Positions 2,190 through 30,890 of a stretch of DNA of 64,000 nt are shown in pieces. Position numbers and translations under genes: made by a program. Below the pieces are notes generated by a model that was not told the DNA's origin, ran no database searches, and saw nothing but the letters and a program-made list of their open reading frames with translations. The stretch comes from an uncultured Gammaproteobacteria bacterium. Its GTDB lineage: Bacteria > Actinomycetota > Acidimicrobiia > Acidimicrobiales > Aldehydirespiratoraceae. How positions within the stretch are numbered: the first letter of the stretch is position 1; each line of letters starts with the position of its first letter. The DNA lies in contig CAXMSE010000039.1 of NCBI GenBank assembly GCA_964196195.1, positions 66,329 to 130,328 on the forward strand, read 5' to 3'.

Positions 2190-3701
2190 TCAAGCGATGA
2201 TGGCCAACTCGATTCCCAGTTCCTGCTGCACTTCGTCTCGCCGTCGGATACTCCACGAGACGCCGCCACCACCGGTTGGGCCGAGTCTCAGAATGCCGGG
2301 CCTGGTGGCGACGAAGTGCCTTCGACTGAGAGATCGCGCGTGGGTGTCGTGGTGTGTGAACCTCCACCACCGCAATGCCACCCCCAACCCACTTGTGAGG
2401 TAGTGCAGATACGCCTCGGGGTAGATGCTCGCCTCGTCGAGCCGAACAAACCCCCGATGGGCCAGTTCGGCCAGTCCCGCGTTCAGCTCGGTTGGCGAAA
2501 CATCGACATCGAGCAGCTCGCGGACCCTTGAGCGGAGCCCCCCACCGTCGAGGTCGCCTCCGTGGTTGACCAGGGCCGAAATCGGCAGGGCTGTGGCAGG
2601 TACTCCAAGCTTGTTTGCCGATGTGATCACGTCGAGTAGGGCCGCAAGCGCAGTGGAGGAACCGGCGTCGAGGTCGTGATCGAACGGATCGGGCCTTTTC
2701 TCTGTGTCGGGGGGAAAGGCCGCGAGGCAGCGGGCCGTCGCTTCGATGGTTGCGGTCGGCTGGTCTGACGCTGTCGCCCCATCTGGGTCGACCGCCACCA
2801 GAGCCGACACCGAGCCATCGCCGGAATCAAGGTCCAGCTCGACCGTGGAGCGCGCCGCAGTGGGAGAAGGTTGGGAAGCGAGGGCGCTGACCACCCCAAC
2901 CGTCGCATGCAACAATCCAAGGGTGCCCGGACGCGCGGTTCCGGGGCCGTGGGGATGCTGCGACGCGGCAACCTCGAGACAAAGCGGAGGCGGGGTGGTC
3001 GGGTCTTGATCGACATGACCAAGGGCCTCAACCGCGGCCACCGCATCAGCGGGCGTGGCCGCGGAGCTCAACACGGCTTCGGCAAGCTGGGCCACGATCA
3101 CGTTCGCGTCGGCGGGCCGGTAGCCACCCTCCACCGGGGTGCTGCGGCCGTTGATGGCGTCGATCAGTTCCCAGAATCTGAAGTCGCTCGGCCCGGTCGC
3201 GGCGAGGTCCTCGAGGAGCAACTGAGCCTCGCCGTGGCGGCCGGCATCGGCCATCGCCTGGGCGGTGAGGATCCACAGCATGGGCACGACTCGGCCTTGT
3301 TCGGTGTTGAGACTCACCGCCCTCGCCAACTGGGCGAGGCCGTCGAATCGGCGCCCCGACATCCACAACGCCGAGCCGTACGAGGCCCTGATTCCTGTGT
3401 CCTCAGGCGCGTGTCGCACCGCCAACCGAAGCAGGTCGGCCGCCGTGGTGTGGTCTTCGGCTTCGAGGAATTCGTTTGCCGCAGTAAGAGCCAGCGATGC
3501 CGCGCATCTCGCCAACATCGGAGTCTTGGGATCGCCGGGGTCGGCTTCGGCCAGATAGGCGTCGACATCGCGGGCGAGACTGGGGAGTTCGATGCGGCCG
3601 GCCTGGATCGTCTCGGCCGTGGTGGCCGTGACCGGAAGCGGAACAGGGGGCACGTCGAGTAGTTCGGCCAGTGCCTCGGTGGGTTGGATCCAGTGGGTCA
3701 T
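2190..3701 (-). CDS. Hypothetical cytoplasmic protein, N-terminal TPR-like helical repeats (503 aa), translationally coupled to the giant gene
   Basis: The track ORF 2190-4118 overlaps the giant gene by 420 nt. The internal ATG at 3701 (MTHWIQPTEALAELL...) overlaps the giant gene's TGA as ATGA (3698-3701). There is no signal peptide or TM segment. The N-terminal ~190 aa are helical and repeat-like (LRLAVRHAPEDTGIRASYGSALWMSGRRFDGLAQLARAV...). I recognise no catalytic motif. Confidence 0.6.
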   Translation of the reverse strand: MTHWIQPTEALAELLDVPPVPLPVTATTAETIQAGRIELPSLARDVDAYLAEADPGDPKTPMLARCAASLALTAANEFLEAEDHTTAADLLRLAVRHAPEDTGIRASYGSALWMSGRRFDGLAQLARAVSLNTEQGRVVPMLWILTAQAMADAGRHGEAQLLLEDLAATGPSDFRFWELIDAINGRSTPVEGGYRPADANVIVAQLAEAVLSSAATPADAVAAVEALGHVDQDPTTPPPLCLEVAASQHPHGPGTARPGTLGLLHATVGVVSALASQPSPTAARSTVELDLDSGDGSVSALVAVDPDGATASDQPTATIEATARCLAAFPPDTEKRPDPFDHDLDAGSSTALAALLDVITSANKLGVPATALPISALVNHGGDLDGGGLRSRVRELLDVDVSPTELNAGLAELAHRGFVRLDEASIYPEAYLHYLTSGLGVALRWWRFTHHDTHARSLSRRHFVATRPGILRLGPTGGGGVSWSIRRRDEVQQELGIELAIIA

Positions 3702-6700
3702 TTCGGGAACACCGGCTGGTAGGACGCCATCATCTGCTTGAGGCTTGCCACGTACTCGGCCTCGCTCATTTTCAGCTGGGTCAGCACCGCCTGGGTGGCG
3801 CGGGGGTTGGCTCTCATCGTGCGGGCCGCGTCGACGAGTTGCTGGTTGGGCAACGGCTGACCAATGCGCCCTGCGACATATGAGGCCCGGTCGACTGCCT
3901 TGGAAACCGACTTGGCGTCGTCGTAATGGCTCATGGCGGCTTGTTGCTGGGTGAACAGCCCTTTCATCTCCGCCGCACCGATCCGGGTCGGGTCCGCAGC
4001 CATGTCGAGCCCCGCGAAGGTACGTTCCGCGCCCCACGCCGTATCGATATCGGCCGCGTTCGCCAGGGGGGTGTTGAGGCCTTCGGCCCGCTCGATCTGC
4101 TGAAGTTCGCTGTCCCACGTGCGAAGGTCCATCTGGCCGAGTTCGTTACGGTCGATGATCGCCTGCCCGGAGGTGGAGTAGCTGCCGGCGTCGCCGGCGC
4201 GATCGCCGAAGGTGAACACCTCGGTCGAACCCTGAGCAGATTGCCGAGCCCGGGTGTAGCCCATCGGATAAGCATCAGCCTGACCCGCACCGGCCCCGAA
4301 ACCTCCGTAGGACCTCATGTCCATGTTGTCGCCGGTCAGACGCCGAGCCGCGGCGGCCGGATCGTCGGCATCGCCGAGTCGGTTGACCGCCTCGCCCAAC
4401 GAGATCCCTTCTTCACGAGCCAGGATCACCGCCGGATCGGTGGCCGAATTGAGGCGGAGCTCGGCCGCTCGTTGGTGCAGCTGGCTGAGTCTCGACTGCA
4501 AGCGTTGCTGGGTCTGGGTGTAGGTCTCGCCCGCCCGCCTCGCGCTGTCGAGCTGATCGCGGGTGAAACTGGCGACGATGGTGCGGTCGGCATCGGTCAT
4601 GACGGATCGCCCCGCTCCGACCGACCCGCTGTTGCCCATCATCACCTCGTTTGGGTGAAAGCCGACCTCAGCCGCGAAATCGTCGACCGCATCGGTCACA
4701 CCCTGACGGCTCGCGGCACCGGTGAGCTCGTCGTGCATGTTTACGACGCTCTGAGCTAGTTCGTCGCTGACATTCCCGGCCGCCTCGGCTCGACCCATCC
4801 CCCCCATCCCATCACCTTGAAATAGGGATCGGCGGGCCGCGTCGGCCGCATCCTCAGCTTCCGCCAACGCATCCATCGCGCGCGCTGTATCGGCGGAGTT
4901 GCCGGTGGCTGCCGCAGCTCGGGCCGCGGCGCGTGCCTCCTCGGCTGCCTCGGCGAGACGCGCTGCCTCGGACATCCGCCCCGGCGCAGCCGCCGCCGTC
5001 TCCGCGACCCCGGTCGGCCCGATCACCCGCGCCGTACTGGCGGCATCACCAGTGGCGTCGAGTACCCGCGCCGTGCTCGCCGCGTCGCCGGTGGCGTCGA
5101 GCACCCTGCTCACATCGGTTGCCTCCGCGGCCAGGTCCATCGTTCTCGATACAGCGACCAGTTCGTCGGCGTGGGACAAGACGCCCGCACCGGCCAAGGT
5201 TGTGCCGATGTCGAGCACCCCCATGGCGACCGATCCCAGCCTCGCTCCCAGAGGGCGATCACCGTCCATGGCGTCGTAGAGGTCGCGGCCCGGTATGAAC
5301 ATCGCGGCGGTGTCGATCGGATGACGGATGAACTGTCCACCCAGCGCGACTCCGACGCGACCGGCGGTTACCGCGCCCTGCTGAATACTCTCCTGGGCGT
5401 CGCCGAAGGTGCCCCCGGCGAGCATGCCGGCGGCGTCGTAGATCGTCTCCGCAGTTCCTTCGCCGAGAATCTTCCAGTTCTCGAGGTCGGTGGCGGCCTG
5501 CACCACGACACGGGTGGCATCGACCATGATGCCCGGTATCTCGGTGGCATCGTTCCACGATGCCTGTGCGGTCTCGGAGAAGATCTGGCCCCAGGTGTCC
5601 CTGAGCGTCGCCAGATCTTGATCTCTCTCCCGCCCCTCGAGTGCTGCCAGCGCGAGGTCCCGCGCCTCGATCTGGGCTCCCAGTCTGTCGACTTCGTCCC
5701 AGCCGGCGCGGATTTCGGTCATCTCGGCGTCGTTGTCGGCGATACTGCGCCCTGCCATGTCGCCGAACCGTTGTTCTGCTTCCTCGTCGCTGTACTGCCC
5801 GGCGACGAATCGCTCGTGATGGGAGTCGCGGGCCCTGCTCGCCTCGCTCGCGGCCGCGATTCGTTGTTCGATCGTGGCGCGGTCGAGCATCTCGGTGCCG
5901 TCGGGAGTGTCCCACGCGTAGAGATCGTCGGCATTGGCTTGAATCGGGTTGCCATGTTCGTCGAGCACGGTGGCCGCAGGCGCGGTGCGGCTGGCTGGTT
6001 CGACACCGGCTCCCTGCAGGGTGGCCCGCACCCTGCCAGCGCCCCCCTCGCGCCAACTGGTGAGGAGGTCGCCGGCGGTGAGGCCGCTCTCGGCGAGAGT
6101 GGCGGCGGTGATCCCCATGGCTGCAATCAGTCCGATCAGTCCCGCGGCGGCTGCTTCTCGGTTGGTCGGCGAGTCGTCCGCGGCTGCGCCCGACGCTGAT
6201 GCGGCACCGAGAGGGACCGAGCCGGGTGCGCCTCGGGTACCCAGCACCGTGCCGAGGTTTCCGCCGATCTCGCCCTGATTGACCATCGCCGTTATGGACT
6301 GGATCATCGATGCGACCTCAGGATCACCCGGCAGGCAATGGTGGCACCGGTATCGGAATATCCCCGATGGGAACACCCCGCGAACGGTGACGTTGGGACC
6401 GTCGGCGGAATCGAAGTCGTTGAGTATGTAGATCTGACCGGGACCGCCCGGGGCAAGCACCTGGTGGAAGCCAACTCTCGCGCATTCGCCTACCGGCGAT
6501 GGGAGGGGCACCCCGTCGGCGCCCAGCTCACAAACGAGGTCGAGATCGGAGTTGCGAGGGCCCCCGTTTATGTAGCCGTAGCCATCCTGATCGAACTCCA
6601 CGGCCAAGCGGGGTTCGGGCCGGGCGAGGTAGTAGGTGAGCTCGCTTCTGACACCTCCGGGGCCCTCCTCGCCGAACTCGATGCCTGAGTCCCAGCACGC

Positions 6701-9604
6701 GGCCTGGTTGGGGGCCACGAACCTTCTGGTGAGCGAGGCCGACGTGTCGGGATCGAACGTGGTGGCCGCGGCCAGGGTGTCGGTGACCTCTTGTCTGACC
6801 GGACACTGGCGGCCACCGTCGTCGCGTGCGGGATCATCAGCCGACGGGGGAGGATCGGTGAGTGCAGGGGCGTCGGTGAGTGAGATGTCGAGTTCGCAGG
6901 GGGCCCACAGCTCGGGCGACCCGGTCAGGCCGGACGCCTGTTCACCGCCGACTAGAACTACCAGTCCCTCGCGTGGTTCGACATCGGTGCGGGTGCTGGC
7001 CACCCCTCGACCGCAGGTTCCGTCGGCTCTCCGACTCGGGCTGTCGAAGAGCAGATCACTGAAATTGACAAATGGTCCGATCACTCCCAGCGAACCCTGC
7101 TCCACTAGTAGAGCTTGGGTCGGTTCCTGCCAGCCGTCGAGCAACTGGCGTGACGCCGTGCCTTCCGCGGAGTAGAGGAGGTCGCAACAAATGCCATCAA
7201 CGAGTTCGAACGCGAACGTCTCCGTACCCGTGATCTTCTGGAAAGACGACGATATGTAGGCATCGATGGCCAGGTCGCGTGTGATGGGGTCGGGTGCGAC
7301 GATGAACGAAGGCTCGAGCGTGATGACGAGGTCGGGCTTTTGTCTGGGAGCGATTCCGCCATTCAGGGTGATCTCATCCCAGCCCACGGCGTCGTTGAGA
7401 GTATCGGCCCCGGTGACTGCGGGTTCTTGGGCTGCTGAGGGTTGGGTGAGCGATGGTCCGAAGGTGGCCCCGGCGATGATGATGAGGGCGACACCTCCTG
7501 TGGCGGTACGGGCATTGGCCAGGGCGGGACGGCGTCCGATCACCAGCCCGGCAGCGGTGGCTCCCGACAGGAACGACAGGGCCAACCCGATGGAGATCAC
7601 TCCGGTACGGTTCAGGAGCCCGGCCACCTGGGTGGCGACGAGACCCGCCGCGAATGCGAAGATCGCCAGCGCGCTCCGCTTGGCCATCAGGCCCTTCGGC
7701 GACGTGACGATGGCGAGATTGCGGCCCTGAGTCAGACCCAGCGCCGCTCCACCGACGAGAGCAGCGGCCATGGCCCACACCGGGGCGCCGGCCGCGAAGA
7801 TCGTCATCATCACCAATGCCCCGCCGAGAGCGAAAATGATCCGCAGGAGCTCCATGCTGGGCCGGATTCGACTCGGTCGGCGGGCCAATAGCAGGGCGAG
7901 AGCGAGGCCCGCCAGCGACAGGACGAGCATCACCACTCGGGCCACCCGCAGCAGGGTGGCGGTGATACCACCGGAGTCTCCCCCCGCCGATGAGGATGCA
8001 GCAGGCTGGGAGTCGGCCCCTTCGTCGTCGCCGCTGCCGTCGCTGTCTCGAGGAGCCAGAGCGAAGGTCCCGGCCAGTCCTGCTTCCACGGCATCGGCGA
8101 GGTAGGGGGGAAGCGGCTCGAACAGGGTTTCGAGATCGGTGATCTCGACATCGGCGCACGTGCGAGCGATCGCGGCAGTTTGCCGGAGCCACTCGCGCGC
8201 GGTGGCATCGGCTTTGTCGAGGTCGCCGGACTGGGGGGCCGAGACCACGATGTCGACCATCGAAGCGAGATCGCCCGACACGATGCGGCCGAAGGTGGTG
8301 TCTGAGGTGGGCCTGTCTTCGACGGAGCAGAGTCGCTCGGCTTCCTCCGCACTGCGACCGTCGGGAAGAACGAACAGCGTGAGCCGAATCGACCGCTCGA
8401 AATCGTCGGCGATCTCCCACGTGCAGGTGCCATTGGTACTCGGGAAGAGATCCGAGAAACCCGAGCTCAACGACGCGGCCGCGGGTCCGGGCGACCCGAC
8501 CTGCTCGTTGAAGGCGGAGATCGTGAAGCCGTCGATGGCCGGACATGGCAAGACGAGCGACTCAATCGGCTGCTGTAGGGCCCCTTCGTCGATGGCTGCC
8601 TCGTATGCGGCGGCCTCAACCTCGCAGTCGACCGCCAATATGAGGAGAGCGTCGGCGACGCGGGTGGCTTGGGCTTCCACGTAGGGCCGCACGTCGTCGT
8701 CGGCCTCGATACTGAGGGTGAGAGCAGCTGGCGCAGAATGCTGATCGACTCCATTGCAGCCGTTTTCCCTGTCGGGGAAAGGAAACCCGCTGATGAATCC
8801 CCTATCGGTCACCGCCGGCACAACATCGACCACGACGGTGTAGGAGGCGCTCTGGTAGCGGCATTCGATCCGGGGATTCGATGACAGGATGCGGGTCGGT
8901 AGCTCGTCGACGACCGAGATGCTCGAAGTGTTGAGGGTGGCGAACTGGAGTGCCGCTGAACGGGTGAGCACCGTGCCTGCCGGAATATCGAGCTGGAGGC
9001 AGGCGCCTACTAGCGCGGCGTCGAGTGCTTCCAGCTGGGCGGCAGCGGCATGGTCGAACGCCGGTACTTCGAGCGGAGTGGGGCATGTTTCTGCGAGTGG
9101 GGCGACCATGTCGGCCATCGACTCGGCCACGGCACGTAATCCTGCGACCGTCTCCTCGTTGGTGTCGGCCCTCAGATCGAATTCTGCGGTGATCGCGAGT
9201 GGCGGTCGGAGCTGGCCCATGTCGATCGCGCGGCGATCTCTGAAGAACCCTTCGTAGGGCAGCGCTTCGAGCTTGCAAATGCGTTCAGGCCGCGCCCCTT
9301 GGCGCGTGAACCGCACATCGACGGTAACGGCCGGCCCGATTCCCACGTAGGAGCATCTGGTTCGGATGAGGGTACTCGCCACCTCAACGCCGTTGAACCC
9401 GTTGGAGGCGACGATTTCCTCATAGTCGCGAGGTGTGGCTCCGGGCACGGCAGGGCAGGTGAAACCGTCGTCGAGAGCCTCGATCGCGGCGATGACCGCG
9501 GCGTCTTCAGGAGTGGGCGGCAGCAGATCGTCCTGAGCGGCTGCGGGCGCGGCGCCCAGGGCGACCGAGCCGATCATCGCCACTGCGAACGCGACTCGAA
9601 GCAT
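3698..9604 (-). CDS. Giant membrane protein of unknown function (1,968 aa): signal peptide, 3 x Cys4 ectodomain modules, 6-TM block, second Cys-rich ectodomain, 7th TM, ~800-aa tail
   Basis: Uninterrupted 5.9-kb ORF. The N-terminus MLRVAFAVAMIGSVALGAAPAAAQ is signal-peptide-like. Cys sit at aa 50/84/110/174, 202/248/283/327 and 354/394/426/483. Hydrophobic helices span aa 547-718 with RR/K-rich alternate loops. There are 10 Cys in aa 800-1090, and aa 1151-1172 (AAAAGLIGLIAAMGITAATLA) is hydrophobic. No known catalytic motif was seen. Confidence 0.8.
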   Translation of the reverse strand: MLRVAFAVAMIGSVALGAAPAAAQDDLLPPTPEDAAVIAAIEALDDGFTCPAVPGATPRDYEEIVASNGFNGVEVASTLIRTRCSYVGIGPAVTVDVRFTRQGARPERICKLEALPYEGFFRDRRAIDMGQLRPPLAITAEFDLRADTNEETVAGLRAVAESMADMVAPLAETCPTPLEVPAFDHAAAAQLEALDAALVGACLQLDIPAGTVLTRSAALQFATLNTSSISVVDELPTRILSSNPRIECRYQSASYTVVVDVVPAVTDRGFISGFPFPDRENGCNGVDQHSAPAALTLSIEADDDVRPYVEAQATRVADALLILAVDCEVEAAAYEAAIDEGALQQPIESLVLPCPAIDGFTISAFNEQVGSPGPAAASLSSGFSDLFPSTNGTCTWEIADDFERSIRLTLFVLPDGRSAEEAERLCSVEDRPTSDTTFGRIVSGDLASMVDIVVSAPQSGDLDKADATAREWLRQTAAIARTCADVEITDLETLFEPLPPYLADAVEAGLAGTFALAPRDSDGSGDDEGADSQPAASSSAGGDSGGITATLLRVARVVMLVLSLAGLALALLLARRPSRIRPSMELLRIIFALGGALVMMTIFAAGAPVWAMAAALVGGAALGLTQGRNLAIVTSPKGLMAKRSALAIFAFAAGLVATQVAGLLNRTGVISIGLALSFLSGATAAGLVIGRRPALANARTATGGVALIIIAGATFGPSLTQPSAAQEPAVTGADTLNDAVGWDEITLNGGIAPRQKPDLVITLEPSFIVAPDPITRDLAIDAYISSSFQKITGTETFAFELVDGICCDLLYSAEGTASRQLLDGWQEPTQALLVEQGSLGVIGPFVNFSDLLFDSPSRRADGTCGRGVASTRTDVEPREGLVVLVGGEQASGLTGSPELWAPCELDISLTDAPALTDPPPSADDPARDDGGRQCPVRQEVTDTLAAATTFDPDTSASLTRRFVAPNQAACWDSGIEFGEEGPGGVRSELTYYLARPEPRLAVEFDQDGYGYINGGPRNSDLDLVCELGADGVPLPSPVGECARVGFHQVLAPGGPGQIYILNDFDSADGPNVTVRGVFPSGIFRYRCHHCLPGDPEVASMIQSITAMVNQGEIGGNLGTVLGTRGAPGSVPLGAASASGAAADDSPTNREAAAAGLIGLIAAMGITAATLAESGLTAGDLLTSWREGGAGRVRATLQGAGVEPASRTAPAATVLDEHGNPIQANADDLYAWDTPDGTEMLDRATIEQRIAAASEASRARDSHHERFVAGQYSDEEAEQRFGDMAGRSIADNDAEMTEIRAGWDEVDRLGAQIEARDLALAALEGRERDQDLATLRDTWGQIFSETAQASWNDATEIPGIMVDATRVVVQAATDLENWKILGEGTAETIYDAAGMLAGGTFGDAQESIQQGAVTAGRVGVALGGQFIRHPIDTAAMFIPGRDLYDAMDGDRPLGARLGSVAMGVLDIGTTLAGAGVLSHADELVAVSRTMDLAAEATDVSRVLDATGDAASTARVLDATGDAASTARVIGPTGVAETAAAAPGRMSEAARLAEAAEEARAAARAAAATGNSADTARAMDALAEAEDAADAARRSLFQGDGMGGMGRAEAAGNVSDELAQSVVNMHDELTGAASRQGVTDAVDDFAAEVGFHPNEVMMGNSGSVGAGRSVMTDADRTIVASFTRDQLDSARRAGETYTQTQQRLQSRLSQLHQRAAELRLNSATDPAVILAREEGISLGEAVNRLGDADDPAAAARRLTGDNMDMRSYGGFGAGAGQADAYPMGYTRARQSAQGSTEVFTFGDRAGDAGSYSTSGQAIIDRNELGQMDLRTWDSELQQIERAEGLNTPLANAADIDTAWGAERTFAGLDMAADPTRIGAAEMKGLFTQQQAAMSHYDDAKSVSKAVDRASYVAGRIGQPLPNQQLVDAARTMRANPRATQAVLTQLKMSEAEYVASLKQMMASYQPVFPK
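5024..5108 (-). repeat. Tandem 39-nt (13-codon) duplication inside the giant gene
   Basis: On the + strand, cacccgcgccgtactggcggcatcaccagtggcgtcgag is followed by tacccgcgccgtgctcgccgcgtcgccggtggcgtcgag and a partial third unit. The protein reads SRVLDATGDAASTARVLDATGDAASTARV (aa ~1498-1526). Confidence 0.8.
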
Positions 9605-20499: not shown

Positions 20500-23400
20500 C
20501 TAGAGGTCGGCGGCCTCCCCGCCGGTGGCCGAAAGGTCGGCCAACTCGCCCGCTCGTGCCTCCACCTCGGCCATCGCCAACCCCAGATCGGACAGCTCGG
20601 CCTCGGTGGCTCCCTGTTCACTGAGAAACACGAACACCATCCGGCTGATGGGCTCGCCGGTGGCGGCTCTCACCGCCGCCGCATAGCTCGCACCTTGGAG
20701 TCGGTAGCGCTCGAGCTTGGCCGCGATGTCGTCGTCGCCCTGGACGTGGTCGGTCTTCCAGTCGACGATGACAAGGCCCTCGGCATCCCGGTAGAGCAGG
20801 TCGACATAACCCTCGACCAGGCGCTCGCCGACCGGAGCGGCCACCCAGACTTCGCGCCAGTGTTTCGAGCGGGTGGCGGCCTGAGCGATGGGGCTCTCTA
20901 TGGCGCTCGAGGCCAAGCGGCGGATCACCGCGGTGCGGTTGGTAACGCCTTCCGCGGCGGCCTGGGCCGCGGCGGCATCGTCGAGGCCGGCGCCGGTGGC
21001 GAGATCGACGATCTGGAGGACGCCGTGAACGGCCCGTCCGACAGCGGTGCCGTAGCGCCCCTTCTGCCAGGGAGGCAGGTCGAGATCGCGGGAGCGCTTG
21101 TGCAGGCCGGGATCGGCTGCATCGGCAACTTCGCGGGCCAGGGTGGTTGCCGCCACGACCATGCGAGTGGAGGCAGCGGCGAGGGCAGCGCTGCGCTCGC
21201 GGGCCCAGAGGGCGCGCTCGGGCACGGCGGCGCGCTCGGGGGCGGTGGGGGCGGTGTAGGACGTGGGGGTGGGTACGAAAGCGGTGGCTGCGGTGGACCT
21301 CAGGGCGGGCTCGGCCATCACCGATGCGCTCGTCCGCGCCTTCTGGTCGAGACGATGCAGGCAGACCACCAGATGATCGCGGGCGCGGGTTGCCGCCACG
21401 TACATCAGCCGCAGCCGCTCGTGTTCGTCCATCTGATCGTCGATCGGCTTCCAGGAGTCGTAGCCCTCCGATGCCACGATGCTGGAGAGCTTCACGAGGG
21501 CCGATCCGTCCGGTGGGAAATCAATCGACGGCCCCCGCGATGGGCGCTGGAACTGGGTGGTCATCCCCGCGAGCACGGTGATCGGAAACTCGAGTCCCTT
21601 TGCTCCGTGGATGGTCATGATGCGCACCGAATCGTCGTCGGTCTCGGGCAGCACCGTTTCTGAAACCCGGGCGTTGTCGGCTCCCTGGAGGCGGGCCCAC
21701 TGCAGGTACGCCCTCAGGTCGGTGCCTCCGGCATCGACCCAGGCCCGGGCCTGATCGGTGACGAACCGAAGCCGCCGCCACACATCGCGAGGCGCTCCTG
21801 TGGCGATCGCGCTCTCCAACACGGCACGATCGCGAACAACACGGTCGAGCAGTTCGGCGGGGGTTGACCAGAGGCGAGCCTCGTGCAGTTGGGCGAGGTG
21901 GGCGAGCCCATCGGCCACCGGGTGCCCCTCGGTGCCCTCGGGTGGGTCGGACCGCAGGGAGAAGCGGCCTTGGTGACCCAGTCGCCAGTGGGCGAGGTCG
22001 TCATCGCCACAGCCATAGACGAAGGACCGCAATGCGGCGACCGTGGCGAGCTCGTCGGTGGGGTCGGCCACCGCCCGAAGCGTGAGCATCAGCTCGCGCA
22101 CTTCTCGCGACGCGTAGACGAGGGACGATGTCTCCGCTCGATAAGGCACACCGACGCGATCGAGGGCTCGTTCGAGGGCGGGCAGGCTCGTTCGGGCGGG
22201 TAAGAGGATGCACACATCGCTGGGAAGCGCTTCGCGCCAGCCTCCTTTGTTGTCGCCGACCATCCACGGCTGGGGCCCCCTCAGTGCCCCGGCGACGGTG
22301 AGAGCCACGTCGCGCGTCTCGACCAGGCGTAAGGAATCGGCCTTGAGTTTCTCGGCGATCGGCTCGCTGCCGAGTAGTGCGACCGAGGGGCCGGCCGGTG
22401 CGGCTTCCTCGCGGTGGGCGCTGAGGGCTACGTATTCGGGTTGGCTGCCTGGCTCGGGCCGGATGAGTTCGCCGAAGACGTCGTTGATCCAGCTAATGAT
22501 CGGGGCGGTGGTACGGAAGTTGACGGTGAGCGAGGGCCGGTCGTGGATACGATCACGGGCCGCGAGATAGACGCCGATGTCGGCTCTTCGGAATCTGTAG
22601 ATCGACTGCTTGGGGTCGCCCACCACGAAGAGGCGGCCGGGGTCGAGGGGGAGATCGTGCCAGCTCCGGCCTCCGGGGTCGTCCTCGGATGTGGCGATGA
22701 GTACCGCCAGTTCGATCTGGATCGGGTCGGTGTCCTGGAACTCGTCGAGCAGGAGTCGGGTGTAGCGCTCCCGCAGCGATGAACGAACCGCCTGGCCGTG
22801 TACGGGATGGCTGAGCACGCGTCGGGCGTGGACGAGGAGATCGTGGAATTCGAGACGTCCCTCGGCTCGTCGCTGCTCGGCGGAGCGAACGACGAAGGTG
22901 CCGATCCGGCCGCCGAGATGATGAAGGGCACCGGTGGTGACTCGGGCAACCGCTGCATCACATTCGGAGGCGAGTGAGCGCACCGTTCGCCGAATCTCGT
23001 CGACATCGATTGCCCAGTTGCTCTTGCGACCATTGCGGCCTGGTTTCAAGGCCCGGGTGGCGCCGTTTCGCTCGCCCATGTCGGCTGCGATTGCCATGGC
23101 GTCGATCTCGTCGAGAGCACCGGCGAGGTCGGCGCGATTCTCGGCGAGGCGACCGAAGAACTTCAAGAGGCCGTCGTCGGCCTCGGGCGCGCAATGGCGG
23201 CGAAGATTCAGAACCTCGTCGAAGCGGGCCAGCAGGGAAGCCCCGTCGAAGGGCACGGGGGGCGGAGGGTCGAGGTCGAGCCTGTCGCTCACGAGGTCCC
23301 AGTTGGCGGCCATCTGGAGGGCCAGCGAACGCAGGGCATCGAGTTTCACGCCGGCGGCCTCGAGCGCGAGCAGGGAGCGAGACATCTCGTCGTCGTCGAG

Positions 23401-23892
23401 GAGTTGATCGAGGAACTCCCGCCAGCGCTGCTCGAACTCGACCTGAGAACCGATCTCGTCGAGAACCTCGACCCCCGGGGGGAGGCCCGCCTCGACCGGA
23501 TATTCGCCGAGGATTCGCTGGGCGAACGAGTGGAGGGTGCCGACCGCCGCAGCGTCGAGTTGTTGGACCGCAGCGCGAGCCGCTCCAGCCGCTGGGTCGT
23601 CGGGAGAGGTGCGGCCTTCGAATCGCTGACGGATGCGATCGCGGAGCTCGGCCGCCGCCTTCTCGGTGAACGTGATGGCCGCTATCGACTCCATGGCCAG
23701 CCCGTCGAGCAGCACGAGGGCCTCGATCCGGTCGACCAGCGCTCGGGTCTTTCCGGACCCGGCGCCGGCTTCCACGAATAGGGTCTGGTCGCGCTGTTCG
23801 CGGATCTTCACCCGCTCCGCCTGGTCGGCGGGTTGACGCTCACCGCCGTGGGAGTCGAGGCCGGGAGACTGTTGTTCAGCCACGATCGCCAC
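20500..23892 (-). CDS. adnB: AdnB/AddA-type ATP-dependent helicase-nuclease subunit (UvrD-like motor + RecB-type nuclease)
   Basis: 1,130 aa. Walker A is EAGAGSGKT, motif II is LLDEFQDTDP, with VGDPKQSIYRFRRAD and TIHGAKGLEF. The C-terminal PD-(D/E)XK motif is GYVDLLY...LVIVDWKTD. Confidence 0.85.
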   Translation of the reverse strand: MAIVAEQQSPGLDSHGGERQPADQAERVKIREQRDQTLFVEAGAGSGKTRALVDRIEALVLLDGLAMESIAAITFTEKAAAELRDRIRQRFEGRTSPDDPAAGAARAAVQQLDAAAVGTLHSFAQRILGEYPVEAGLPPGVEVLDEIGSQVEFEQRWREFLDQLLDDDEMSRSLLALEAAGVKLDALRSLALQMAANWDLVSDRLDLDPPPPVPFDGASLLARFDEVLNLRRHCAPEADDGLLKFFGRLAENRADLAGALDEIDAMAIAADMGERNGATRALKPGRNGRKSNWAIDVDEIRRTVRSLASECDAAVARVTTGALHHLGGRIGTFVVRSAEQRRAEGRLEFHDLLVHARRVLSHPVHGQAVRSSLRERYTRLLLDEFQDTDPIQIELAVLIATSEDDPGGRSWHDLPLDPGRLFVVGDPKQSIYRFRRADIGVYLAARDRIHDRPSLTVNFRTTAPIISWINDVFGELIRPEPGSQPEYVALSAHREEAAPAGPSVALLGSEPIAEKLKADSLRLVETRDVALTVAGALRGPQPWMVGDNKGGWREALPSDVCILLPARTSLPALERALDRVGVPYRAETSSLVYASREVRELMLTLRAVADPTDELATVAALRSFVYGCGDDDLAHWRLGHQGRFSLRSDPPEGTEGHPVADGLAHLAQLHEARLWSTPAELLDRVVRDRAVLESAIATGAPRDVWRRLRFVTDQARAWVDAGGTDLRAYLQWARLQGADNARVSETVLPETDDDSVRIMTIHGAKGLEFPITVLAGMTTQFQRPSRGPSIDFPPDGSALVKLSSIVASEGYDSWKPIDDQMDEHERLRLMYVAATRARDHLVVCLHRLDQKARTSASVMAEPALRSTAATAFVPTPTSYTAPTAPERAAVPERALWARERSAALAAASTRMVVAATTLAREVADAADPGLHKRSRDLDLPPWQKGRYGTAVGRAVHGVLQIVDLATGAGLDDAAAAQAAAEGVTNRTAVIRRLASSAIESPIAQAATRSKHWREVWVAAPVGERLVEGYVDLLYRDAEGLVIVDWKTDHVQGDDDIAAKLERYRLQGASYAAAVRAATGEPISRMVFVFLSEQGATEAELSDLGLAMAEVEARAGELADLSATGGEAADL

Positions 23893-26800
23893 CGTTTACA
23901 GCAAGATAGGTGACCAATTCCGGATCGTCTTGGAGCCGGCTCCAGTCGGCGTACTGGTGGGCCAGGCCGAGGCCATCGGGCTCGCAGAACTCGCAGTCGA
24001 CCCAGGGGCGAAACTTGGGCACGGCGGGGTGTTGGGGGAAGTGGCCGGTAGCGATGCCGTCGACGATCATCGCCACCGTGGTGAGGGCGGTGGCTTCCAC
24101 CTCGGGGGTGACCGCGTAGCCGACTGTGTCGAAGCGGCCCTTGCGGGTAACGAACCAGTAGTCGCCCCTGACAGATGCGTTCGGCCGGTCGAGGATCTCG
24201 CGAACGGCCAGGGAATAGAGCACGAGCTGGAGGTGGGCGCCGCCGGGGGTGGGGTCGTCGGCGCTCAAGCCGCGGTAGTTGCGGCTCGAACCAGTCTTGT
24301 AGTCGATCACCACCAACTCGCCGTTGCTGGTCTCGTCGACGCGGTCGATGGCCCCGCGGAGGAGGAGAGTGCGGCCGTCGGGTAACTCGAGGCTGACCGG
24401 CGGCGTGTTGCCCCCGGGCATTCCGAACGCCATCTCGGTGGCGACTGCTCGTGAACCGTGGGCCGCGCGCTGGGCATGATCGAATTCGGCGAAGTCGAGC
24501 AGGTCGCTCATGAGGACCTGACGATCGCGCTGCCAGTACACCCGCCGCCCGACTATCCCGCGGGCCTGAAGCCGGTCGGCTTCATCGGACGCAGCGGCCA
24601 GGAGTCGCTTGACCTCGGAGTCGGGCCACGGCGCCCCCGGGGCGGGCGAAGCGCCCCTCGATAGTGCCTCGCTGATCCAGCGATCGAGAAGATCGTGCAC
24701 GAGCGAACCGAGGGTGAGCGGCGAGATGCGGTACTGCTCCTCGGGGTCTTGCACCGAGTCGACGCGCAGGATGTGGCGGATGAAGTATGCGTGGGGGCAT
24801 TTCGCCCATGACTCGAGGCGGGTGGCGGAGCTGATCTCGCCGGCGTCGGTGGGCGCCGGGAGTTGGGCCCCTCGAAGATCGCCGTCGGTGGCGAGGTTTC
24901 CGTCGAAGCGAGTGAAACGCGACGAGAGCCGACCTGTGACGAGGTCGATGCCGCGACGAAGCGCGGGCCGAAGGTCGACCAGGGGATCGGTGCGGATATC
25001 GGCGCCTGCTTCGGCCCGGTCGAGCAGGGCTCGCACGTCGTATTCCTGATCGTGAGCCGGGAAGGGTGACGATCTGAGCCCGGCGATGAAGGACGGCACC
25101 TCGGTGAGCCAATCGCCGGTGAGTCGGTTGAGATCGGCGGCCGAGGGCCTGACCCCATCGCGGATCTCGGTGGAGTCGAGCAGCCACCGGGAGGGCGCCC
25201 GCTCGGCATTGCGGCGCAGGTCGCCGCGCGGAAAGCTGAATACGACCTCGCTGGCGGCGGCCATGACGGCCAGCAGGGCTCGGTGTTCGTCGTGGACGGC
25301 ATCTGCCGCCAGGGGAAGGTCGGGGGCTGCGACGGTTCGAACTCGATCGGGGAGCAGGGGGTCGTCTCGACGGCGGGCCGGGAACGATCCCTCCGCCATT
25401 CCGAGAACAACGACGTTGTCGAGCTCGAGTCCGATGGCCAACTTCACATTCCCGACGAGTACCCCGTTGCCGAAGGAGCCGTGGCGGCCAAGATCGTCGG
25501 CGAGTTGGAGCTCGAGGGCCCGCCGAAAGCTCGACGGGTTGGGGTTGGGATCGATCCCGTCGAGGTCGGCCAGCCGATCTATCGCGGCGTCGATCCTCTG
25601 GGCGGCCGCTCGTTCCTCCGCGGGCCAATTGGTTCGGAGCGCTTCGCCCCCGAGATAGGTGCGGACGAGTTGGCGGCACCAGGAGGCGAGGCCGGACCAC
25701 GATGTGGCGCGGCCAGCTGGATCGAGATCGTGGGCCAGGCGGGTGATGAAGCCCGCGAGCTCGCCTGCATGCTCGGCGTCGCGTCGAAGCCGGGCAACCC
25801 GCCATCCCTGCTCATCGTCGTCTTGGAATCGCACCGCCTCGGCCTCAAGGTCTTCGATGCGACGCTCCAGGCGATTCGTCCATTGTTGGAGGCCACCGAC
25901 GATGCCGGCGGCTCTCGATGCTCGCTCCCATGCCGCCACCGGCGCGGGCCGGTTGTCGAGGCCCCGCACAGGGGCGCCGGCGAGCCAGGCCGCGACATCG
26001 TGGCGAGACAGGTTGTGGTCGGGCAATGCCAACAAGGCGAGTAGTGAGCGGCCGAGTAGGGAGGCATCGGCGGTGCGAACCGATGAGCCGAACCAGGCGA
26101 TTCCGGCTGCATCGAGGGCATCGCCGGCGAGCCGGGCGTAGGGGTCGGTGGCGCTGTAGAGGATTGCGCAACGGGCCAGCGGAATCCCACGGCGCGCGGC
26201 CGCAATCACTGTTCGCACTGCGTGGCGCACCTCGTCGTCGGCATCTGACACGGTGAGCGCGCGGTGGGCTATGGGGATGGGCGGGACCGAAGCCCCGGGG
26301 AGGGGCCACTCCGCTCCGATCGCTTCGATTGCCTGGCGGACCGATGCGTCGGCGTCGTCGACGCCGGTGATGCCGGCCAGCACCAATAGGGGGTGACGGC
26401 GGGCGAAGCCGCTCAGAAGGCGAGCCTGGCTGCTGGTGAGGTGCTGGGGGAGAAAGAGGATCGCGGGGCCTAGTTCGGCGAGGATGGGGGCGTTGGTATC
26501 GAGGGCGTGAATGGCCGCGTCGATGAGGTCCTGTTCGTCTGAGAAGCCGTCTCCCAGCCGGCGACGCACGGCCCGATGGATTCGAACCACGTCGGAGGTG
26601 CGGGGGGTGGTGGCCTCGAGTCGACGGAGGCCTGCCTCCGACACCTCCGAGAGCGACCGATGAGAACGAATCAGTGAGCGTTCGGTGGTGGGGTGTCGTT
26701 CGACCCCGGCGAAGTGGCCGGGATCTGAGTGCAGAATTGCGCGCACAGCCCCCGCGAGAACGGGCGTGGAAACCGGTCGACGGCCGGTGGCGGCAAGGCC

Positions 26801-27046
26801 CGGCGCTCCCAGGAGTTCGGCGAGCCGATACGGGGTGAGGAAGGTGACCGCCGCGATCCCGCCCTTGTGGCCGAGCGACCGTCGCGCCGCGATGCCCACA
26901 TGGTTTGAGGGAACGATCACCGCGACCGGTTGTAGTGGGTCGTCCTGCTTGTGGTGGTCGATCGCGGCTGCGAGGGTCACGTGGGCCGGAGGGCCATATG
27001 GGGTGGTGGTGACCGGGATCGACATCGCAAGGAGGATCGTACGCAC
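23876..27046 (-). CDS. adnA: AdnA/AddB-type helicase-nuclease subunit (degenerate motor domain + RecB-type nuclease)
   Basis: 1,056 aa, sited immediately upstream of adnB and overlapping it. No intact GxGKT/S was seen at the N-terminus (VAVIVPSNHVG). The C-terminal nuclease motif is GAIDRVD...LVVIDYKTG. Start is ambiguous: GTG 27046 or ATG 27025. Confidence 0.75.
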   Translation of the reverse strand: MRTILLAMSIPVTTTPYGPPAHVTLAAAIDHHKQDDPLQPVAVIVPSNHVGIAARRSLGHKGGIAAVTFLTPYRLAELLGAPGLAATGRRPVSTPVLAGAVRAILHSDPGHFAGVERHPTTERSLIRSHRSLSEVSEAGLRRLEATTPRTSDVVRIHRAVRRRLGDGFSDEQDLIDAAIHALDTNAPILAELGPAILFLPQHLTSSQARLLSGFARRHPLLVLAGITGVDDADASVRQAIEAIGAEWPLPGASVPPIPIAHRALTVSDADDEVRHAVRTVIAAARRGIPLARCAILYSATDPYARLAGDALDAAGIAWFGSSVRTADASLLGRSLLALLALPDHNLSRHDVAAWLAGAPVRGLDNRPAPVAAWERASRAAGIVGGLQQWTNRLERRIEDLEAEAVRFQDDDEQGWRVARLRRDAEHAGELAGFITRLAHDLDPAGRATSWSGLASWCRQLVRTYLGGEALRTNWPAEERAAAQRIDAAIDRLADLDGIDPNPNPSSFRRALELQLADDLGRHGSFGNGVLVGNVKLAIGLELDNVVVLGMAEGSFPARRRDDPLLPDRVRTVAAPDLPLAADAVHDEHRALLAVMAAASEVVFSFPRGDLRRNAERAPSRWLLDSTEIRDGVRPSAADLNRLTGDWLTEVPSFIAGLRSSPFPAHDQEYDVRALLDRAEAGADIRTDPLVDLRPALRRGIDLVTGRLSSRFTRFDGNLATDGDLRGAQLPAPTDAGEISSATRLESWAKCPHAYFIRHILRVDSVQDPEEQYRISPLTLGSLVHDLLDRWISEALSRGASPAPGAPWPDSEVKRLLAAASDEADRLQARGIVGRRVYWQRDRQVLMSDLLDFAEFDHAQRAAHGSRAVATEMAFGMPGGNTPPVSLELPDGRTLLLRGAIDRVDETSNGELVVIDYKTGSSRNYRGLSADDPTPGGAHLQLVLYSLAVREILDRPNASVRGDYWFVTRKGRFDTVGYAVTPEVEATALTTVAMIVDGIATGHFPQHPAVPKFRPWVDCEFCEPDGLGLAHQYADWSRLQDDPELVTYLAVNGGDRG

Positions 27047-28895: not shown

Positions 28896-30890
28896 GTGCC
28901 CTACCGTGTCGAGGAACTTGCCGAAGCCGCCGGCGTGGCGGTCGACACCGTCCGCTACTACCAGCGTGAGAAGTTGCTGGCTCCTCCCGAGCGCGAAGGT
29001 CGGCGGGCCTGGTACGACGATGGGCACCTCGAACGCCTCCGTGAGATCCGCGACCTTGCCGATCAGGGATTCAGTCTCGCCCAGATCCGCTCCCTGTCGT
29101 CCCCCGACGCCAGTGGTCTGCTGGCGGATCTCGCGTCCGAGAACGCCGCCGATCCCGAGCTCGACAAATCCGAACTCGCCCGTCGAGCGGAGGTGCCGGA
29201 GTTCCTCGTCGACGTCGTTGTGAGCGCGGGTCTGATCACCCCCAGCGGGGCATCCGGTGATGAACGCTTCGCCGCCGACAGCATCGACATGCTCGTAGCG
29301 GCGCGGACCCTCGTGAGCGAAGGCGTGTCGCTGGAGGAACTCACCGCCCTCGCTCTGCGCCACGCCACCCACGTCGAGGACGTGATCGACGACGCCATCG
29401 AAGTCTTCAAACGCCACAGCGACAACAAGGGCGGAAGTCGAGAAGACCTCGTGGCGCTCATGCACCGGCTGGTGCCGGTCGCCTCCTCCCTGGTCGGCCA
29501 GCACTTCGAACGAACCCTGCGAACCCGAGCCCTCGCCCGCATCGGCGACGATCCCGTCACCGAGGGCGGAGGGGTCGTGGTGTTCGCCCACAAGCTGGAG
29601 AAGCACCTCGACCCGGTCGCCCTCTACGAGGCGGCCGATGATCACCACCGGATGCTCTGGGTGCGGCCCGAGTCCGGGTTTGCCCTTGTCGGCCTGGGCG
29701 CCGTCGAGGTGATCGAGCCCCACGGCCAAACCAGGTTCTCGGCGGCGTCGGCGGCTCGGGCCGCGCTGGCGGCGCGAGTCCGGCGTCACGGGCCGGCCGA
29801 TGCCCCCGCTCCCGTGCTCGTCGGTGGATTCTCGTTCTCTTGTGGCGCCGGTGAACAGGGCCCCGACTGGTCGGGCTACCCCGATGCCCGGTGGGTCCTG
29901 CCGGAGCTCACCGTGGTCACCCGGGCCGACGGCTGCTGGCTGCTCGCCGCCACCGTGCTCGCGGATGGAGACGACGAGAAGGCGGCCCTCGACAAGCTTG
30001 AGGCGCGGATCGACATCCTGGCCCAGACCCCGCTGCCGGTCGCGTCATCGGGCGCTGAGGTCCCCCACGGCGAACCATCGAGCAACGATCCGCCCTATGT
30101 CGATCTGGTGGTCGAAGGAGTGGCGGCGATCACCGCCGGCGAGTTCGGGAAGGTCGTGCTGGCCCGGGTATTCGACCGGGGCCCCATCGACACCGGCCTC
30201 GTCCTCCAGCGCCTCGTCGACCGCTACCCGACGTGCGCGGTGTTCTCGGTGGGTGTGGGCGACCGCGCCTTCCTGGGTGCGAGCCCGGAGCAGCTGGTGG
30301 CCCTCGACGGCCGCGAGGTGCACACCGTCGCCCTGGCCGGAACCACCGGCCGCGGTTGGGACGAGACCACCGATACGGGGCTGGCGGCGGAGATGATGGC
30401 ATCGCCGAAGGTGCGGTCCGAGCACGCCTTCGTCGTGGACGACATCTCTTCTCGGCTGGCGACGCTGGGTCTCGTGGGCGAGACGCCCAGCGAACCGGAG
30501 GTTCTCCGTCTCGCTCGGGTGCAGCACCTCCGTACCCCGATCACCGCTCGGGTCGAACGTCGAACCGGTGGCGTCTCCGACATGGACGTGATGAGGGTGG
30601 CGAGTGTGCTCCACCCCACACCGGCGGTGGCCGGCACCCCCACCGAGGCAGCCCTGAAGTGGCTGACCACCCACGAGGACTTCGACCGGGGCTGGTATGC
30701 CGCTCCGGTCGGCTGGTGCGACCTCGACGGCAACGGCGAGCTTCGCGTGGCCCTGCGCACAGCCCTGGTCGACACTGATCGCGTGCAGCTTTTCGCCGGC
30801 GCCGGGATCGTGGCCGACTCTGATCCTGAAGATGAGCTCACCGAAACCGGCGTGAAGCTCCGTGCCCTCCTCGATGTGATGGAGTCCTGA
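28896..30890 (+). CDS. menF: MerR-family HTH domain fused to isochorismate synthase
   Basis: Single 664-aa ORF. Residues 1-70, YRVEELAEAAGVAVDTVRYYQREKLL...WYDDGHLERLREIRDLADQGFSLAQIR, are a MerR HTH. Residues ~235-664 are a chorismate-binding enzyme (GASPEQLV, LAGTTGRG, SEHAFVVD, LHPTPAVAGTP, DRGWYAAPVGW, AGAGIVADSDPEDELTET). Confidence 0.8.
   Translation: MPYRVEELAEAAGVAVDTVRYYQREKLLAPPEREGRRAWYDDGHLERLREIRDLADQGFSLAQIRSLSSPDASGLLADLASENAADPELDKSELARRAEVPEFLVDVVVSAGLITPSGASGDERFAADSIDMLVAARTLVSEGVSLEELTALALRHATHVEDVIDDAIEVFKRHSDNKGGSREDLVALMHRLVPVASSLVGQHFERTLRTRALARIGDDPVTEGGGVVVFAHKLEKHLDPVALYEAADDHHRMLWVRPESGFALVGLGAVEVIEPHGQTRFSAASAARAALAARVRRHGPADAPAPVLVGGFSFSCGAGEQGPDWSGYPDARWVLPELTVVTRADGCWLLAATVLADGDDEKAALDKLEARIDILAQTPLPVASSGAEVPHGEPSSNDPPYVDLVVEGVAAITAGEFGKVVLARVFDRGPIDTGLVLQRLVDRYPTCAVFSVGVGDRAFLGASPEQLVALDGREVHTVALAGTTGRGWDETTDTGLAAEMMASPKVRSEHAFVVDDISSRLATLGLVGETPSEPEVLRLARVQHLRTPITARVERRTGGVSDMDVMRVASVLHPTPAVAGTPTEAALKWLTTHEDFDRGWYAAPVGWCDLDGNGELRVALRTALVDTDRVQLFAGAGIVADSDPEDELTETGVKLRALLDVMES

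Follow-up and report, generated by a model that had tools for sequence, protein, structure and literature searches.

Is a protein whose last few hundred residues are laid out like a polymorphic toxin in fact a toxin? The question is raised by a 64,000-nucleotide stretch of contig CAXMSE010000039.1 (assembly GCA_964196195.1, positions 66,329 to 130,328; called the window here), which encodes on its reverse strand a membrane protein of 1,968 amino acids (aa) and, overlapping its stop codon, a partner of 503 aa. The initial annotation had proposed that the large protein carries a PT-TG-like pre-toxin motif, an Ala-rich linker and a variable C-terminal toxin, with the partner in the place of an immunity gene. 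We found that the C-terminal domain defines a large unannotated family and that it is a conserved, uncharacterised module rather than a swappable toxin cassette. The explanation that we favour, tentatively, is that the large protein is a receptor-like membrane protein with a novel, cytoplasmic and probably catalytic C-terminal output module, and that the partner is a TPR adaptor.

A profile of the C-terminal domain, run at full HMMER sensitivity against 1.84 billion cluster representatives, recovered 123 proteins, each standing for one 50%-identity cluster; 92 matched at E<1e-10 and 25 at E<1e-30. The domain is always at the extreme C-terminus of its protein, and a hydrophobic anchor lies upstream of it in 87 of the 95 full-length members. 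The typical member has a signal peptide, an ectodomain, one membrane helix and a tail of ~650 aa (family median, 685 aa), and cysteine makes up 0.14% of the tails versus 0.7% of the N-terminal parts. Pfam scans of 81 full-length members identified ectodomains of binding type (PEGA, PKD, BACON, HYDIN/ASH/MSP-like Ig, CarboxypepD_reg and BiPBP_C); RHS, LXG, WXG, VgrG/PAAR, FHA, TcdB and any other known toxin-trafficking domain (such as MafB-N or PrsW) were absent from all 81. Lysine content varies from 0.3% to 14.6% among members, which implies that many phyla are represented. The few named sources are one Dehalococcoidia and one Ruminococcaceae metagenome-assembled genome (MAG). Almost all are metagenomic, and where a protein has any name in its source it is "hypothetical protein". 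The new element is this family of domains: it is widely distributed and unannotated, and its predicted fold has no counterpart in PDB or BFVD. Because the domain is always the last part of membrane-anchored proteins whose ectodomains vary greatly, it is a candidate new output module that might serve transmembrane signalling or a membrane-gated form of self-intoxication.

The window protein is organised as follows, with identities to its orthologues where they were calculated:

3698-9604, reverse strand: large gene, a 5,907-bp open reading frame (ORF) for 1,968 aa, from the ORF list and translation; stop codon at 3698-3700.

9536-9604, reverse strand: putative signal peptide, aa 1-23 (MLRVAFAVAMIGSVALGAAPAAA, cleaved before QDD), with a hydropathy peak at aa 4-22; the cleavage site is our own reading of the sequence.

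7955-9535, reverse strand: extracytoplasmic domain 1, aa 24-550, with 12 Cys, assigned from the Cys count and orthologue identity; 54-76% identity, the fastest-evolving part.

7445-7954, reverse strand: six predicted membrane helices, aa ~551-720, from hydropathy; 71-89% identity.

6161-7444, reverse strand: extracytoplasmic domain 2, aa 721-1148, with 10 Cys and a conserved ...YRCHHCxPxxPEVA, assigned from the Cys count and alignment; 64-82% identity.

6089-6160, reverse strand: predicted seventh membrane helix and tail anchor, aa ~1149-1172, with a hydropathy peak at aa 1152-1170; 83-100% identity.

5588-6088, reverse strand: juxtamembrane and charged helical segment, aa 1173-1339, from the translation and hidden Markov model (HMM) matches in 16 relatives.

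5165-5587, reverse strand: conserved pre-domain, aa 1340-1480, which holds the PT-TG-like motif; HMM matches in 15 relatives.

5183-5308, reverse strand: the motif, AAMFIPGRDLYDAMDGDRPLGARLGSVAMGVLDIGTTLAGAG, aa 1433-1474, placed inside the pre-domain by its coordinates; 78-96% identity.

4820-5164, reverse strand: repeat- and Ala-rich linker, aa 1481-1595, from Tandem Repeats Finder (TRF); 57-88% identity.

3701-4819, reverse strand: C-terminal domain, aa 1596-1968 (373 aa), from the profile-search family; 68-90% identity.

The initial description was correct in all its sequence facts. The motif had been put at residues ~1430-1480, where it lies, and the linker is indeed followed by a C-terminal region (described as ~370 aa) that belongs to no Pfam or NCBIfam family; the whole 1,968 aa gave zero matches in Pfam (E<=10) and NCBIfam (E<=1). 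Within the linker, TRF located a 39-bp tandem repeat of 2.2 copies at 5020-5106, encoding the 13-aa unit RVLDATGDAASTA. The linker is expandable: P0002 and P0003 each hold an extra 51-aa copy of the AEEARAAARAAAATGNSADTARAMDA... segment. The segment at aa 1173-1339 is probably coiled-coil-like.

The six peaks of the helix block and the seventh helix were also seen in the hydropathy profiles of orthologues (P0003, P0005 and P0006), and the seventh helix aligns to that of a more divergent relative, P0007, in a profile search. The 793-aa tail is free of cysteine, versus 12 and 10 residues in the two outer segments (527 and 425 aa), and Arg/Lys-rich loops are located where the cytoplasmic side is expected. 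On this basis the tail, including the motif and the C-terminal domain, is predicted to be cytoplasmic, a caveat that the initial annotation had itself attached to its proposal. Five bitopic family members (P0039, P0067, P0070, P0079 and P0098) have the sequence [KR][IV]P.PEN..QA.AG.LIPG before their single anchor, which recalls sorting signals. P.PEN..QA.AG.LIPG was considered as a shared membrane-anchor motif and set aside, as it occurs in only these five members and is unmatched in the window protein.

A word-indexed search of 5.8 billion proteins returned only seven relatives of the large protein. Five are full-length orthologues with 63-82% overall identity, and the related loci belong to MAGs of Acidimicrobiales, Acidimicrobiia and Ilumatobacteraceae. 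The expectation that the C-terminus would be hypervariable behind a conserved upstream part was contradicted by this comparison. With 68-90% identity, versus 54-76% in ectodomain 1, the C-terminal domain ranks with the most conserved regions of the protein; a sensor at the surface whose inner output is under constraint would be expected to show this pattern. The domain occurs as a single copy in the window and in every fetched locus where it was detected, and no orphan cassettes were found in the window or in 20 loci (tblastn, and HMM searches of six-frame translations).

In receptor-type membrane proteins such as PknB-type Ser/Thr kinases and membrane-bound class III cyclases, the ectodomain varies and the cytoplasmic output is conserved. 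The window protein is like them in its succession of signal peptide or ectodomain, anchor, putative helical stalk and conserved cytoplasmic domain, and in evolving fast outside and under constraint inside. It is unlike them in that its output domain matches no known output family, either by sequence or by fold.

The motif (AAMFIPGRDLYDAMDGDRPLGARLG...) is recognisable also in ~15 more distant relatives, and its clade consensus is TP.QDF.DA.DG.R.LG.RL. Its identity of 78-96%, compared with 63-82% for the whole protein, indicates that it is more than a chance resemblance and that it belongs with the most conserved stretches of the tail. By the Pfam model, however, it is not a member of PT-TG (PF14449), to which it had been likened. 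The window protein, its residues 1430-1968, the 141-aa pre-domain (aa 1340-1480), the clade consensus and six clade members (P0010, P0012, P0013, P0015, P0033 and P0040) were all unmatched at E<=10 in scans for which P0135 was the positive control (Pfam gathering score, 23.5 bits).

P0135, a distant family member of 622 aa, surfaced in the alignment search with the C-terminal domain. It has a PT-TG at residues 192-243 (32 bits, E=1.2e-7) that was both precomputed and recomputed, and this lies ~70 aa upstream of the homologous C-terminal domain; the window motif lies 120 aa upstream of its own. Among 49 members scanned (E<=0.01), the only other PT-TG match was in P0090, an 80% relative of P0135. 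In at least one lineage the C-terminal domain fills the "toxin slot" of a PT-TG protein, and for that lineage the window segment is equivalent in position to a true PT-TG. The P0135 locus (L005, 977-7941) follows envelope-associated genes (CsgG-like, DUF1425, LpoB, LPP20 and FlgT-like) in a low-GC genome of diderm type with Omp85/POTRA nearby, a context unlike that of every Acidimicrobiia locus.

In 62 of 89 members the equivalent position is taken by a different pre-domain, FTG..DG.TS...TGG.SE.VYTP.DALY..KD.IDRGESG. A pattern common to all three types of pre-domain, P...D..Y....G.D...G..L, can be seen by eye, and MAFFT places the window-clade motif under the wide-family pre-domain. Comparison by hhalign of the PT-TG region of P0135/P0090 with the window-clade profile (E=0.78) and with the wide-family pre-domain (E=0.69) was not significant, the profiles being shallow enough in both cases to miss a very remote relationship, and every pair among the three types gave E=0.2-0.8. 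An iterative HMM search from the window motif stopped at 15 proteins and reached neither the wide-family pre-domain nor the PT-TG of P0135. With neither method connecting them significantly, we do not claim that the three types are homologous.

The PT-TG of P0135 and P0090 could be taken to support a classical exported polymorphic toxin, in which the window protein would have a divergent PT-TG, a C-terminal toxin and an immunity gene downstream. A survey published in 2026 counted 10,226 PT-TG proteins in 312 architectures tied to type VI (T6SS) and type VII (T7SS) secretion systems and contact-dependent inhibition (CDI), in whose toxins PT-TG is a known pre-toxin module; many of the proteins have no recognisable toxin domain, other functions are possible, and the conserved core is a 15-residue loop with Gly, Asp and Arg (PMC13483458). 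The window protein resembles such proteins in having a short conserved segment of the G/D/R type before a linker and a C-terminal module, with the next gene tightly coupled. A domain that is always C-terminal, fused to many different N-terminal regions and followed by an overlapping gene would also fit.

The differences from this class are that the window protein has no Pfam match, trafficking domain, C-terminal polymorphism or cassette array, and that its tail, like that of most relatives, is predicted to be cytoplasmic. An exported toxin would need its tail cleaved and passed through the protein's own helices, by analogy with PrsW-fused toxins, or else an unlinked system, and no such export route is supported. 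Membrane-embedded fusions of PrsW peptidases to toxins are a precedent for membrane-coupled release (Zhang et al. 2012, PMC3482391), and they too have a multi-helix membrane domain N-terminal to a module that starts on the cytoplasmic side. The likeness is one of analogy only; the helix block of the window protein matches neither PrsW nor any other peptidase, and RHS repeats and known toxin domains are lacking. The unmatched PT-TG and the non-significant hhalign comparisons, a conserved single-copy domain without orphan cassettes, the lack of RHS, LXG, WXG, VgrG/PAAR, FHA and TcdB in the 81 relatives, a window free of secretion genes, and a 503-aa partner conserved only in its TPR domain all argue against export, and we regard this explanation as improbable. 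The toxin interpretation was partly supported. Its layout recurs across the family and P0135/P0090 have a true PT-TG, so that it survives as an analogy of layout with one genuine PT-TG relative, but PT-TG membership, polymorphism, trafficking and location all went against it. Layout alone is insufficient for naming such proteins polymorphic toxins.

One lineage appears at first to show the boundary expected of exchanged toxins. P0007 and its L018 orthologue (82%) are 32-45% identical to the window clade over the ectodomains and helices (L018 and P0012 are 45% identical over 1,050 aa). The tail profile of the window clade can be aligned to P0007 over a stretch that spans the seventh helix, the motif (…LTGLDRLAASADPDKPLAERL…) and the linker, and the match is lost as soon as the C-terminal domain begins. 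The last ~300 aa of P0007/L018 are missed by the family profile. Homology that is detectable up to the domain start and not beyond is a point for an exported toxin, and it has the toxin-style look of a swap, here perhaps with a distant paralogue.

We lean against a swap. The P0007 and window C-termini share collinear short matches, namely DADRT/DRDFT after the strand-loop, LGDADDPAAAARRL/LGLPDDAASLAQRL, SY…Y.P.G and R.NP…L..S..F (hhalign E=0.089 for the last); written as patterns, the motifs kept in P0007 are DxDxT, LG..DD..A.RL, SY..Y.P.G and R.NP..L..S..F. A shallow AlphaFold2 (AF2) model of the P0007 C-terminus is confident at residues 40-140 (pLDDT 70-90; 55.8 overall), where the order of long helix, strand, long loop and strand is that of the family core. 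No known toxin fold was matched by this alternative C-terminus, and the lineage has retained its TPR partner at 28% identity. A cassette-like replacement is disfavoured by the collinear motifs and the equal order of secondary structure, and the P0007 C-terminus is more probably a highly diverged, possibly inactivated, homologous copy.

What the domain does may be indicated by its invariant residues. In alignments of 34, 32 and 21 diverse domains with ~30% identity to the window, the positions kept are S1659, G1660, S1661, D1671, D1673, (T1675), D1777, Y1779, K1902, R1906 and P1934. Most of these fall in three segments:

4580-4636, reverse strand: invariant loop G1657-N-S1659-G1660-S1661...T1670-D1671-A-D1673-R-T1675, between strands 1 and 2.

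4265-4276, reverse strand: invariant D1777-A-Y1779-P1780 (alignment columns D182 and Y184).

3887-3901, reverse strand: invariant K1902...R1906 (columns K307 and R311), on helix 302-318 in the C-terminal helical half.

The loop columns are S64, G65, D76 and D78 in alignment A4, S, G, D and D in A12, and D, G, S, D and D in A8. An AF2 model from the 34-sequence alignment is confident (pLDDT 89.5, pTM 0.87). In it a long helix leads into strand 1, and a loop of 15 residues with the G-S and DxD positions joins this to strand 2; helices and three further short strands come next, and the C-terminal half is helical. The predicted fold is a novel one. Foldseek comparison of the model with PDB and BFVD gave no match at E<0.2, PDB sequences searched with profiles A3, A4 and the core-only A12 gave only noise, and the domain was unmatched in Pfam, PHROGs and PADLOC profile searches.

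The G-S, DxDxT, D-x-Y-P and K...R elements suggest that the domain is probably enzymatic, with an acidic metal site. The signature of Pol-beta nucleotidyltransferases is hG[GS]x9-13Dh[DE]h with a third carboxylate, and DxDxT is also the pattern of HAD motif I. The window domain has the Pol-beta type of sequence signature in G1660-S1661, nine residues, D1671-A-D1673 and the invariant D1777, and it resembles these enzymes further in the long helix before strand 1. It differs from them in that G-S and DxD are joined by a loop and not by a helix. Neither a nucleotidyltransferase fold nor a corresponding profile was found by Foldseek (PDB, E<0.5), PDB-sequence profiles or Pfam, the best match being GlnE (3k7d; E=2.0, probability 0.08). 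Since no search backed a Pol-beta or a HAD fold, we leave the enzyme class undesignated.

The same residues might instead serve folding or binding, in which case the tail would be a non-catalytic platform on which cytoplasmic proteins dock by way of the TPR partner, with a task at the envelope or in division, for instance. The domain is largely helical and matches no enzyme family, a TPR partner is what an assembly or chaperone role would typically involve, and the partner has a weak, sub-threshold similarity to SctY (E=2e-4). Such a platform seems very unlikely given that S, G-S, D-x-D-x-T, D-x-Y-P, K and R are invariant at ~30% identity, which is more typical of active sites. Family C-termini (window 3701-3760, aa ~1949-1968) often end in ...MM..Y.P.[LF], as in SYQPVFPK, DYNPTL, GYNPNLK and RYNPTFG, and this ending could be a peptide for the TPR partner.

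The partner gene is coupled to the large gene as tightly as had been described:

2190-3701, reverse strand: partner gene, 503 aa, the ATG of which overlaps the TGA stop of the large gene as ATGA.

3117-3701, reverse strand: conserved TPR domain of the partner, aa 1-195, from Pfam TPR_14.

TPR_14 matches residues 141-178 (E=4.9e-7, 30.3 bits, cut-off 23.5), and TPR_19 matches more weakly. A partner follows the large gene in L003, L004 and L006-L013. Start and stop overlap in most of the five window-clade loci (L003/L008, L004/L006, L007 and L009), and the partner is also downstream in L010-L013, where the C-terminal domain is only 44-48% identical. Eight other, distinct loci, those of the divergent P0007 lineage among them, have kept the TPR domain. 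Its identity is 41-69% (26% in L001), and that of the C-terminal half is 0-53%. Close relatives are still 43-53% identical in the part after the TPR domain, in place of which other loci have a membrane helix and a Thr-rich region (L010), zinc ribbons (L011; two of them) or nothing (L012). The partner changes faster than the C-terminal domain (58% versus 90% in L004), and it is not present in the more distant family loci L014-L017.

An immunity gene had been suggested for this place. The position and coupling are real, but a 503-aa TPR protein does not look like a small cognate immunity protein, and an immunity role, though possible, is the less likely one. The partner is better explained as an adaptor or regulator that docks on a conserved feature of the tail, because its TPR domain is conserved, its remainder is variable, and its evolution outpaces that of the domain that it would be neutralising. 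The closest parallel is with TPR chaperones and adaptors such as class II chaperones of type III secretion systems (T3SS) and SctY, which the partner resembles in its ~195-aa TPR domain, translational coupling and co-conservation with the tail. It is unlike SctY in its score (21.8 bits against a cut-off of 70), in its additional variable half of ~300 aa and in the absence of a T3SS.

Other genes follow more distant family members. In L021 (758-1930) and L022 (9985-11073), two unrelated loci, mutually homologous proteins of ~340 aa with a zinc ribbon (29% identity, E=6e-39) directly follow the family member, and a further zinc-ribbon protein comes next, with an FHA fusion in one of the loci and an RDD fusion in its counterpart. 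No relationship was detected between these ~340-aa proteins and the C-terminal half of the window partner. The downstream product in L005 is a 563-aa protein with a signal-like N-terminus, and in L023 it is a small four-helix membrane protein.

We tentatively propose that the two genes form a module of a receptor-like membrane protein, with two fast-evolving Cys-rich ectodomains on either side of six membrane helices, and its translationally coupled partner. The cytoplasmic tail of ~800 aa would consist of a charged helical stalk, the pre-domain, an expandable Ala-rich linker and the C-terminal domain. The last would be an enzyme with an active site of the metal-dependent phosphoryl- or nucleotidyl-transfer type, for which the G-S loop, DxDxT, the third Asp in D-x-Y-P and the K...R pair are the candidate site. 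Events at the variable ectodomains would regulate this activity through the stalk and pre-domain. Most likely, the conserved TPR domain of the partner would dock on the tail as an adaptor or regulator, and its variable C-terminal half would provide links to lineage-specific functions. The analysis establishes the anatomy, the pattern of conservation, the size of the family, the C-terminal position, the confident novel fold and the linkage to the partner; catalysis, the direction of signalling and the role of the partner are proposals.

Several observations weigh against this proposal. In P0135 and P0090 the equivalent domain comes after a genuine PT-TG, an arrangement that hints at conflict systems. 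Searches of Pfam, NCBIfam, PADLOC, PHROGs and PDB sequences, and Foldseek comparison with PDB and BFVD, gave no match that would assign a biochemical function; the nucleotidyltransferase-like reading comes only from the sequence pattern of the motifs, and the modelled loop is without the helix that classical Pol-beta-type enzymes hold between G-S and DxD. The topology is a prediction from hydropathy, charge and Cys distribution only. No known signalling partner (kinase, cyclase or transcription factor) is conserved nearby, and the downstream genes vary between subfamilies, as toxin-immunity pairs often do.

Some of these observations could also be explained by a self-directed conflict or defence effector. 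In that case the C-terminal domain would be a cytoplasmic toxic enzyme silenced by the pre-domain, the TPR partner or both, and freed when the ectodomains sense phage, contact with a competitor or envelope damage; the outcome would be dormancy or death of the producing cell, with no delivery to a neighbour. This would reconcile the cytoplasmic location with the toxin-style layout and with the PT-TG of P0135/P0090, and it would suit the fast-evolving ectodomains and the coupled but family-variable downstream genes. At the P0007 locus (L001, 6789-10004), and also in L002, the gene for a 1,071-aa STAND NTPase (NACHT/AAA_16) shares 4 nucleotides with the start of the homologous large gene. We consider a self-directed effector unlikely all the same. 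The STAND neighbour is limited to the P0007 lineage, PADLOC found no defence family for the large protein, the partner or their relatives, the window and the syntenic loci have a housekeeping context and are not defence islands, and the TPR partner is kept even where the C-terminal domain has diverged beyond recognition. The window lacks such an NTPase; the gene upstream there encodes an AMP-dependent ligase.

A broader form of the receptor proposal, which we put forward as speculation with the odds against it, is that the C-terminal domain is a new enzymatic effector fold inside receptor-like proteins of many uncultured lineages (Acidimicrobiia, Dehalococcoidia, Ruminococcaceae and others), switched on from outside by lineage-specific ectodomains. 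Were this so, the domain would be either a new output of transmembrane signalling or the self-directed toxin of a new, membrane-gated class of conflict systems, and the PT-TG-like pre-domain would be a hinge or latch, the first function of PT-TG outside exported toxins. The co-occurrence in P0135/P0090 bears on the question raised by the PT-TG survey of whether toxin-less PT-TG proteins act beyond interbacterial antagonism (PMC13483458).

The ten large neighbouring genes of the window encode an AddAB-like helicase-nuclease pair, POR, chorismate-binding and thiamine pyrophosphate (TPP) enzymes, a sulfatase, hydrolases and an ABC transporter; secretion-system genes are not among them. The flanks are syntenic with a related MAG. 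The AddA/AddB-like genes (20500-27046, reverse strand) overlap one another and encode proteins of 1,130 aa (UvrD helicase and PD-(D/E)XK nuclease) and 1,056 aa (PD-(D/E)XK nuclease only). On the forward strand, a gene at 28896-30890 encodes a MerR-type helix-turn-helix (residues 3-67) fused to a chorismate-binding enzyme domain (residues 400-654), and a TPP-dependent enzyme directly follows at 30892-32625. The two genes resemble a MenF/MenD pair in which a regulator is fused, unusually, to the N-terminus.

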